Assembly: GCA_003971905.1 (NCBI GenBank)
Contig: RSEE01000126.1
Span: forward strand, 124,001-173,855
DNA length: 49,855 nucleotides
Reading direction: 5' to 3'
Source: Moniliella sp. 'wahieum'
Taxonomy: Eukaryota
Both the position numbers and the translations under genes were made by a program. This document shows, piece after piece, positions 40,067 through 41,546 of the stretch (position 1 is the stretch's first letter; every line of letters starts with the position of its first letter). The notes beneath the pieces were generated by a model. It saw nothing but the letters and a program-made list of their open reading frames with translations, was not told where the DNA came from and did not search any database.

Positions 40067-41445
40067 GGACGAGGAGAGCCTTTGGTGGGGCGGCTGCACG
40101 TGTGGCAAGGCTGCGTCTGCACCGGCTTGGGCTGTAGTAACGTGTCTGAAGCCTCCGGGACTTAGGGACGGGAGGAGGCAGCGGCGGACAAACACTGCCT
40201 TACTGGGACTGGGAATCGCCGCGACCGAAGGAGGGCTCGCGCGATTGGACTGACGAAGGCTGGAGGACGAGGTCGGAGGAGTGTCGGACGCTAACAAGAG
40301 GAGCTGCCTGTACTGGATCAATTGGCTGGAAACGGGCAGGAGCCGGACAGGATAGGCGGGAAAGGGACGAAGGTGGAGACGAGAGATGACGAGAATGGAA
40401 GGTGGGGAAAAGATCCCCATCAACCAGGGGTACAGGCAGGATCAAAAGGGAAACGGATACAAGAGGGGGTGTAGAAGGAAGACATGTCAAAGCGGGGTTG
40501 GTCGCCACAGGCGCGCGAGAAAGGAAACGGAAACGGGACGGGACGGCAGATGCCGCCACGGCACTGGAAGCTCGGTGGCCTTATTTAGGCCGGCCGACTT
40601 GGACTTGGGCGGGGGGCGACTATTGTCGCACGGAGCATGACCCTTCGGGCCACGGTACTTTATTAGCCAACCATCATCACACTTGGTTGGCCTGCGGTGC
40701 ACGCTCTACTGGACATGTGCGGAGCAGGCGGGCCTTAGCTTGGTCGGATCATCTCATGTCCGCCGCAGCCCGTGACAGGCGGTGGGGCAGGGTCTCTTGG
40801 TAAACAATGGAGCTCTGGACGCAGACTGTGTGGACTGATACATTGCTGGAGTGGAGAAGGATGCAGAAAGAATGACGGCACTGATGATTCCCACGTGAGC
40901 CTCTTCTCTTCTATTGCGGTATATATACTGGGTGATGCAGTGGTGTTGACCGTCGCAGATCCGATGGGATGCGGTGCGGTCACAGTTCTAGGGTGGCGGA
41001 TGGTTAGTGGTAGAGTATATATGGGGCATGCATTGGTCTGTGGAAGATGAGGAGAGCTGTCCCGCGCGGGGGCTACAGGGGGAATCGAACACTACTCCGG
41101 CGCGTGGCCGAAGACATTCTGCCCAGGTGCCTGCCTGTGAACAGTACATTTTCACACAGTCAGCATCTGCAGGGGTCAGTATACGTACAAGTCGGAAGAA
41201 GGTCAGTATATCCACAATTCGGAACCTTACAGGGGATCGGTACCAAAGACGCAACAGGGAAAGGGGGAGGGGACATCACACAGCAAATTCGCTTCCTATT
41301 CCAATCTTTTTTCTTTGCCAATTTGTGGTATGGTTCTGTAGGTTGGCTTTCGGAGGTGCAATGCCCCCCTCTCCCGAAGAGAGGGGGGAATCAGAGGAGC
41401 CGGATATCCTACTTCTCAATCAAAAAACCGCGAGGGACCTCTACC

Positions 41446-41496
41446 AGATAGGGACAGTGGAGTCTCGTTAATCCATTCATGCGCGTCACGAATTAA

Positions 41497-41546
<50 letters not shown>

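Follow-up and report, generated by a model that had tools for sequence, protein, structure and literature searches.

The terminal rDNA unit on contig C126

The window, by which we mean the whole stretch of 49,855 nucleotides analysed here (C126:124001-173855), has its right edge at the end of contig C126. All positions are given on the plus strand, while the rDNA is read on the minus strand. A search with Rfam models identified one rDNA unit in the window, with 18S, 5.8S and LSU genes (Table 1). A single intact unit of 10.1 kb on contig C193 (the reverse complement of locus L022) served as the reference and is here called the array. In the array, the SSU starts at 3480 and the LSU at about 5674, and the R2 motif, the TGTCCC motif and the sarcin-ricin loop are located at 7906, 7972 and 8650, respectively. 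Over 5.75 kb, the rDNA in the window is 97.3% identical to the array, with many indels (59 gaps).

Table 1. Features of the terminal rDNA unit and its inner flank in the window.
Feature	Position	Strand	Evidence
Intergenic spacer with sub-repeats and 5'ETS, terminal unit	45926..49855	-	86-97% identity to array unit C193; contig ends inside the spacer
18S rRNA gene	44096..45925	-	RF01960, 1712 bits
5.8S rRNA gene	43855..44007	-	RF00002, 127 bits
LSU gene, 5' part, nearly identical to the array right up to the break	41446..43731	-	RF02543
R2 target motif TTAAGGTAGCC, intact and unoccupied	41511..41521	-	Sequence
TGTCCCTATCT, the 11 nt directly after the R1 first-strand position; final LSU bases	41446..41456	-	Sequence; R1 position as given in passages of PMC3414825 and PMC2718515
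LSU gene, final ~57 nt, decayed copy	41389..41445	-	Alignment from array 8929 on; 0/200 random sequences reach the score
3'ETS pyrimidine/purine hairpin, kept in 32/32 aligned joints	41364..41388	-	Alignment
Decayed LSU-5S spacer	41002..41363	-	Collinear alignment
5S rRNA pseudogene	40894..41001	-	RF00001, 19.2 bits, E 1.1 (below gathering); 79-83% identity to the array 5S, in two pieces
Decayed spacer beyond the 5S; end of the shared module on C126	40778..40893	-	Sequence comparison
834-bp solo-LTR-like dispersed repeat, TGTCACGGGC...GCCCGTGACA (TG...CA inverted ends)	39944..40777	-	Genome search

A genome search with the 834-bp repeat gave 586 candidates, the best 40 of which were scored and showed 93-97% identity, apart from the self match. 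Seven of nine other copies of the repeat are flanked by a 5-bp target duplication. The window copy, bounded by CCGCC/GTAGC, has none, and a rearrangement therefore likely took place here. The repeat also occurs in pairs placed 2.36 kb apart (C8:953570/955931, C123:88034/90394 and C42:400007/402370), which point to a putative family of short non-autonomous LTR elements. The first gene of the chromosome arm inward of the module (37183-37997, plus strand) has a weak F-box-like match (PF12937, E 0.001) in two frames. A spliced gene at about 29600-31600 on the minus strand is membrane-transporter-like and, compared by eye, presumably resembles the fungal MFS siderophore transporters.

Position of the break in the LSU gene

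On the minus strand, the LSU gene passes through TTAAGGTAGCC (41521-41511) and TGTCCCTATCT (41456-41446), and then switches at 41445 to GGTAGAGGTCCC. The LSU positions 7983-8928 (946 nt) are absent, and the stump is fused to a decayed copy of its own rDNA tail. Array 7983-8930, which contains the peptidyl-transferase region and the sarcin-ricin loop, gave no BLAST match anywhere in the window, and the LSU copy in the window cannot give a complete LSU. In the intact array, TGTCCC begins 62 nt past the AA/GG step of the R2 site, which is 60 nt past the R2 first-strand cut if that cut lies where we assume it to be. Counted from the same cut, the break lies at 70 nt in the window and at 71 nt in the array, because the window is short of one C in CCCAC.

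According to the section of PMC3414825 that deals with these sites, R1 sits 60 bp downstream of R2 and makes a 14-bp duplication. Passages of PMC2718515 place the usual top-strand position of R1 at +14 and give duplications of 11 or 13 bp for R1B of D. ananassae. Since TGTCCC is located at the published R1 position and the LSU stops after TGTCCCTATCT, the break corresponds to +11 from the R1 site. The preliminary description, which had been made from the letters of the window alone, was accordingly right in placing the break inside the R1 target motif, 70 nt past the R2 site, and in finding the missing 3' part of the LSU nowhere else in the window. The continuation that it expected past the site has 0 matches in this genome, where intact rDNA units instead run on as ACTACGTTGCGAAACC / ACTACGTTGCG. 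The sequence tag named for gathering reads at this site is CCACTGTCCCTATCT.

The flank beyond the break

The sequence from 41445 to 40780 aligns in order with array 8929-9722, covering the 3' end of the LSU, the 3'ETS hairpin, the spacer and the 5S gene. The score of this alignment is 281, compared to a mean of 132 and a maximum of 181 for 200 composition-matched random sequences, none of which reached the observed value (0/200). The first 70 nt of the flank are also significant by themselves (0/200), and the Rfam match to the LSU extends past the break to 41377. The flank showed no match to the LSU just past the site, where 192 of 200 random sequences reached the score. Judged by these alignments, the flank is an old, decayed copy of the rDNA's own tail. 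It had previously been read as non-rDNA, and the break as resembling the 5' junction of an R1 element. Neither reading of the flank is supported: it consists of decayed rDNA and is no element 5' end.

The earlier observation that no reverse transcriptase ORF follows the break agrees with our results for the ORFs tested in the window. An element ORF was rejected as a candidate, as these ORFs gave a weak F-box match and one marginal unrelated match, and no CRE sequence was detected near the break in the window. A group I intron was likewise rejected: the Rfam models detected no intron (39000-41450, E<=5), and the LSU does not resume in the window. The same applies to a special RNA structure at the joint, for which the folding z-score was -0.17.

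Distribution and age of the joint

The flank is repeated in the genome, with at least 47 matches listed for window 40780-41400. In a search with the junction itself, the best 40 of 51 candidates were scored, of which 32 span the joint and eight match the LSU only. A census based on the R2 motif gave 41 matches, representing 29 of the 32 joint ends, ten copies that are intact at the site, and C137 and C175. In the latter two, the LSU stops at +14, after TGTCCCTATCTACT, and the 3'ETS hairpin follows; their flanks are more diverged but belong to the same family. At least 34 of the 44 LSU copies found at the site thus end there, 32 at +11 and two at +14 from the R1 first-cut position. Ten of the 44 are intact, a number that is an undercount because tandem arrays are collapsed in the assembly, and none (0/44) ends elsewhere between the R2 site and +14. 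The joint is more than a product of chance, as 32 of the 40 listed matches carry it and two more ends break at +14.

All 34 joints lie no more than 25 kb from a contig end and are oriented inward, and the contig ends that carry them are likely chromosome ends. Telomere-like hexamers terminate six of the 18 distal ends examined. Ten distal joints of the rDNA pieces were inspected and fell at nine different positions, from 3864 to 9465. The distal joints are scattered, and the inner joint alone is therefore fixed.

The distal sides differ in several other respects. On C128, C19, C24, C35 and C199 (the ends of L137, L066, L247 and L243, and the start of L255), telomere-like repeats directly abut segment X (see below), a broken CRE1 or the interior of the rDNA, and this zone thus seems to have been broken and healed repeatedly. 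Five other contigs, C135, C136, C47, C39 and C37 (L037, L239, L240, L241 and L242), carry a non-rDNA block of about 9.4 kb on the distal side of the rDNA. These blocks have identical terminal letters, and all five meet the rDNA at array 9465, immediately ahead of the 5S gene. Within a group consisting of L075:1150 (C80), L026:3222 (C49) and L033:4758 (C16), the LSU is joined at array 6578 to one poly(A) end, with a reverse transcriptase match further out, and two other distal joints end in GTCTA/G, which we take to recall the 3' ends of Helitrons.

The two sides of the inner joint have evolved very differently. Over the 150 nt upstream of the joint, the 32 joints show 0.2% substitutions compared to the array, while the 500 nt of the flank differ by 17.5% in pairwise comparisons (496 pairs). 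Towards the joint, the frequency of substitutions is 0.2% at positions -50 to -11, 2.2% at -10 to -1, 3.7% at 0 to 5 and 15% at 6 to 10. This pattern fits one ancestral joint, the rDNA side of which has been refreshed by conversion almost to its edge. The flanks of the 34 contig ends are 54-99.6% alike and of one ancestry, so the joint is to be seen as an old junction that spread between ends rather than as the work of an active element. A series of fresh insertions is not supported, since a single old junction lineage was copied to many ends.

In a midpoint-rooted tree, the ends with an intact LSU formed one clade, which was nested among the more diverse truncated ends (8% compared to 14% substitutions). 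Monophyly of the truncated ends was rejected by the AU test (p 0.017), a test that was chosen after the tree had been seen, and the root of the tree is by midpoint only. The sequences lean towards the truncated form being older than the intact form.

Organisation of the full end module

At the ends that carry the full module, the decayed tail is followed by a segment of about 0.6 kb, here called Y-X, then by a 70-nt LSU piece that starts from the R1 first-cut base, and then by a CRE 5' end. A search with the sequence that follows the site in the intact LSU gave 21 matches, nine of which are in whole LSU genes, while 12 are preceded by the non-LSU segment X. In all 12, the LSU match is only about 60-70 nt long. 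The edges of the piece are sharp: in 18 copies, the identity to the LSU is 0.42 before and 0.92 after 7972, and 0.85 before and 0.24 after 8042. The junction between X and the LSU thus begins at 7972, which is 60 nt from the R2 first-strand cut, with the cut placed as assumed above. The CRE 5' end that follows the piece is decayed and contains two zinc knuckles. As a query it gave 24 matches, of which 21 start within its first 15 nt, and these 21 are on the contigs with end modules.

Three contigs (C21, C33 and C73) contain the truncated LSU, the decayed tail, Y-X and the LSU piece consecutively, with TGTCCC on both sides of 1.33-1.49 kb. On other ends, for example on C2, C14, C53, C158 and C201, a whole LSU 3' end stands ahead of this same Y-X segment and LSU piece. 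All 21 matches to X in the genome are close to contig ends, with end modules as the only matches, and no autonomous partner sharing X as a 3' tail was found. Several candidate identities for these segments were rejected. Random sequences reached the score of X as decayed upstream LSU in 39/200 and 93/200 cases, tblastn gave no support for X or Y as a CRE coding end, and X had no credible match to a known RNA in Rfam. On C208 (L126:1461-1529), the 70-nt piece matches the array at 97% identity, and the segments next to it match their homologues at 71-79%; this piece may have been refreshed by conversion or re-cutting.

On C126, the module ends shortly after the 5S pseudogene. The 834-bp repeat is likely the point of the recombination that would have taken Y-X, the 70-nt LSU piece and the CRE remains, and with them the downstream half of the module, off this end.

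Two CRE-clade retrotransposons joined to LSU sequence

Two element families of this genome are joined to LSU sequence, an intact-looking CRE1 and a decayed CRE2. CRE1 is 4.0 kb long, and its copies are 98-100% alike (L029:4796-8814 on C2 and C33; L102-L103, C158:13-11181). It interrupts the LSU and has array 8422-8673 (251 nt) on both sides, and the copies on C158 are in tandem with the 251-nt piece between them. The element contains a reverse transcriptase; in Pfam, RVT_1 was the only match, in two CRE1 ORF pieces. The C-terminus reads C-x2-C-x8-H-x3-C-x9-RHE...E...RTD, which represents a CCHC finger followed by an RLE motif and fits the pattern described in the relevant section of PMC12857005. 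By eye, the last ~21 nt of CRE1 resemble the LSU just upstream of its junction; the possibility that the ends of CRE1 are long LSU mimics was rejected, as the similarity was not significant over 150 nt. A variant base in the LSU pieces is present in 3/3 pieces upstream of a CRE1 copy and in 2/4 downstream, and is absent from the array, which hints that the long LSU pieces are carried by the element itself.

The readable ends of CRE1 and CRE2 abut the LSU, with the exception of one off-target CRE1 copy on C222 (L110:2533), the 3' end of which is joined to non-rDNA after a few target-like bases. On C219 (L030:1290-1330) and C53 (L031), bases from the tail of CRE1 are present in otherwise whole LSU genes at the point of its 3' junction, much like the footprint of an element that recombined out. 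An inverted CRE1 fragment of 1.6 kb (95-96% identity) is placed within the decayed CRE2 block on C12, C14 and C69 (L097, L099 and L105).

CRE2 is a decayed sister of CRE1, with a reverse transcriptase that is 70-72% identical, and lies inward of the rDNA on many ends. Its C-termini are broken and align at 29-56%. All eight decayed CRE2-type C-terminal ends that were found (8/8) run into a decayed LSU piece that starts at about the R1 site, and conversely, a CRE C-terminus is located at most 400 nt upstream in 16 of 25 decayed LSU pieces. A genome search with one such end gave 44 match pieces, listed from 28 candidates. On C136, the order is CRE C-terminus, LSU piece and CRE 5' start (0/200 random). 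A CRE 5' start after the decayed piece was seen in this one of the five cases tested, and the four others were without it. At the CRE2 3' ends, the identity to the LSU is 0.62 at 7951-61, 0.26 at 7962-71 and 0.57 at 7972-82, which makes for a fuzzy start, in a profile of 30 rows of which five are not CRE2 ends. About 70 nt of LSU would thus bound each copy of CRE2, and the duplication that can be seen is 70 nt. The sequences retrieved include no intact CRE2, and no CRE2 copy is placed in an LSU with both full halves; the CRE2 cut sites were for this reason inferred from fossils.

In a phylogeny, CRE1 grouped with CRE2 (support 100/100), to the exclusion of the seven interstitial CRE segments and the 33 database proteins included. 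The tree was inferred from the best 30 of 79 BLAST matches, three C. neoformans proteins and genomic segments of at least 105 amino acids, and contains no curated CRE reference. The CRE reverse transcriptase is 42% identical to the three C. neoformans proteins, which are annotated as hypothetical and which we infer to be Cnl1. A scan of 18 of 64 parts of the metagenome data gave 80 relatives of the reverse transcriptase with 26-51% identity and with no rRNA match. The LSU piece is carried neither by the interstitial CRE loci (0/7) nor by the metagenome relatives (0/80). Judging from their sequences, CRE1 and CRE2 are CRE-clade RLE retrotransposons with an rDNA target and not a telomeric one. 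No LINE of the APE type was seen at the R1 site in any of the 44 LSU copies.

The proposal of a site-specific fungal element or nuclease that made the cut and so set the boundary of the rDNA is thus supported by the multicopy joint and by the decayed CRE-clade RLE elements that are joined to the same site. An R1-like enzyme is not supported for the candidate element, the sister of which has an RLE motif; no APE domain was seen.

Origin of the joint

The explanation we prefer, and consider fairly probable, is that the joint on at least 34 ends is an old junction, made when the CRE2 endonuclease cleaved the R1 site of the innermost rDNA unit, and then spread by exchange between ends. The joint is a fossil and neither an active element nor an artefact. 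In this scenario, the first nick by CRE2 would fall on the bottom strand ahead of TGTCCC, that is, on the R1 base (7972) or close to it, and the same nuclease would cut the top strand at +11 to +14, as R1 does. The junction may then have formed by either of two routes. Along the first, reverse transcription at the nick would copy an RNA that ends in X and reaches back into the rDNA tail, and read-through or a template jump would give an insert of 1.3-1.5 kb between two copies of TGTCCCTATCT. Along the second, the cut would have been joined with a loss of 946 nt in a unit that was already backed by X and a CRE array. We place the first route slightly on the probable side and the second slightly on the doubtful side. 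Template jumps have been reported for R2 (in the part of PMC3414825 that treats R2 insertions). The first route is favoured by the TGTCCC on both sides of the 1.33-1.49 kb insert on C21, C33 and C73, and by the nesting of the intact-LSU ends among the truncated ends (AU p 0.017, post hoc, midpoint root). Afterwards, gene conversion would have kept the rDNA side current to within some 10 nt of the joint, and the flank would have drifted.

Linking the break at +11/+14 to the 70 nt of CRE2 requires an extra assumption, namely that the CRE2 RNA carried the 70 nt or that the cut was atypical. Moreover, a small number of events underlies most of the 34 joints and of the CRE2 junctions, and the counts are therefore not independent.

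An ordinary deletion of 946 nt could instead have occurred once in a terminal rDNA unit, with no site-specific nuclease, and been copied to many ends, in which case its proximity to the CRE2/R1 site would be coincidental. One event suffices to explain the single flank lineage in all joints, the substitution gradient at the edge fits passive conversion, and the visible duplication of CRE2 is 70 nt, not 11. However, the deletion would have had to start 11-14 nt past the base where the X/LSU and the CRE2 3' junctions begin, and a random LSU breakpoint would fall so close about 1% of the time, by a rough estimate. Furthermore, the most diverged lineage breaks at +14, which is the published R1 top-strand position, and the distal breaks of the same rDNA pieces are scattered. 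We regard an ordinary deletion as unlikely.

It is more improbable still that the flank and Y-X represent a non-autonomous 5S-bearing retroelement, similar to a SINE3 or a SIDE, which inserted repeatedly at the R1 site by means of CRE2 proteins and made its own joint each time. The 11-nt direct repeat around the 1.3-1.5 kb insert on three ends would be expected from such an element, Drosophila has SIDEs at the R1 site (PMC3414825, in its account of these elements), and variation is clustered in the last bases before the joint, as at the R1 5' junctions described in part of PMC2718515. Against this, none of the 12 downstream halves extends past about 70 nt of LSU (0/12), although collapsed arrays could conceal some that do. 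The same CRE block stands behind all 12, a mark of segmental duplication. The junction variants mostly track the flank lineages (by eye), the 5S is internal and broken, and X is not common to any CRE coding end.

An assembly artefact is extremely improbable: the assembly is rich in small indels, as in the rDNA of the window, and none of the 24 sequencing runs listed holds half of the words of the stretch (share 0.08-0.09), but the joint is found on 34 separate contig ends with flanks that are 54-99.6% alike, and diverged homologous flanks are not something that an assembler invents.

If the joint was made by the CRE2 endonuclease, as we prefer, the choice of the R1 base by a CRE-clade element is likely convergent. 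A broader conjecture, which we consider rather unlikely, is that a fungal RLE lineage left a telomere-type target for the rDNA and split into two specificities, one of them at the exact base that the unrelated APE nuclease of insect R1 uses, and that its cut gave a nuclease-proof stump without both CRE targets, which was favoured and spread to most chromosome ends as a shield against breakage by these elements.

Implications

Non-LTR elements that target the rDNA have been described from animals, and fungal CREs as telomere-associated. Our survey of the open-access literature found no fungal rDNA-specific non-LTR family. The CRE clade described here links a fungus to two sites in the LSU, and one of these is the R1 position. 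New are the census of 34 ends, the recognition of the flank as rDNA and the link between CRE2 and the R1 base. If true, nucleases of two classes, from two kingdoms, have converged on a single base, and this has a bearing on the crowding of many elements in a short stretch of the LSU. With reverse transcriptases that are about 70% identical, different targets, and duplications of 251 and 70 nt, CRE1 and CRE2 provide a natural test of target switching and long duplications in RLE elements. The CRE2 cut would also offer an origin for the fixed inner edge of the rDNA on dozens of ends.

Relationship to known systems

The nuclease of R1 is of the APE type. Like arthropod R1 (R1Bm and Drosophila R1A/R1B), the system described here has its first-strand junction 60 nt downstream of the R2 site. 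Tandem copies parted by the duplicated target are also R1-like (portions of PMC2718515 and PMC3414825). The upstream joints at +14 or +11 recall R1 as well, R1B of D. ananassae making duplications of 11 or 13 bp (a passage of PMC2718515), but CRE2 copies are bounded by about 70 nt. In contrast to R1, which has two ORFs and an APE, the linked element is fungal, has a CRE-type reverse transcriptase, a sister with an RLE motif and about 70 nt of LSU at its flanks, and the break in the window continues into decayed rDNA, not into element sequence. The linked element is thus not R1: it shares the site of R1 but not its enzyme.

The hybrid R2/R1 SIDEs of Drosophila are non-coding inserts at the R1 site, placed between target duplications and mobilised in trans (PMC3414825, where it deals with SIDEs). 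They have a ribozyme head and an R1 tail and are located in an otherwise whole 28S, whereas the insert here consists for the most part of rDNA tail and has become a fixed component of an end module that was duplicated. In Encephalitozoon cuniculi, a subtelomeric rDNA unit is present at every chromosome end, according to a section of PMC4704409, while the innermost unit here is cut at a retrotransposon target and has no whole LSU.

With Cnl1 of Cryptococcus, MoTeR1 of Magnaporthe and FoTeR of Fusarium, the elements share the C-terminal CCHC-RH...E...R.D, as in the published REL pattern, and the head-to-tail arrays near chromosome ends. Those three are described as telomere-associated in the pertinent part of PMC12857005, whereas CRE1 and CRE2, a clade of their own, each adjoin one particular site in the LSU. 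R9 of the rotifer Adineta vaga differs from CRE1 and CRE2 in being an animal element of the R2 family at a different rDNA site (PMC12203849, in its treatment of R9). It is an RLE element in the rDNA with a stagger of 126 bp, as reported in a passage of PMC6895275, and this long stagger provides a precedent for the 70- and 251-nt duplications found here.
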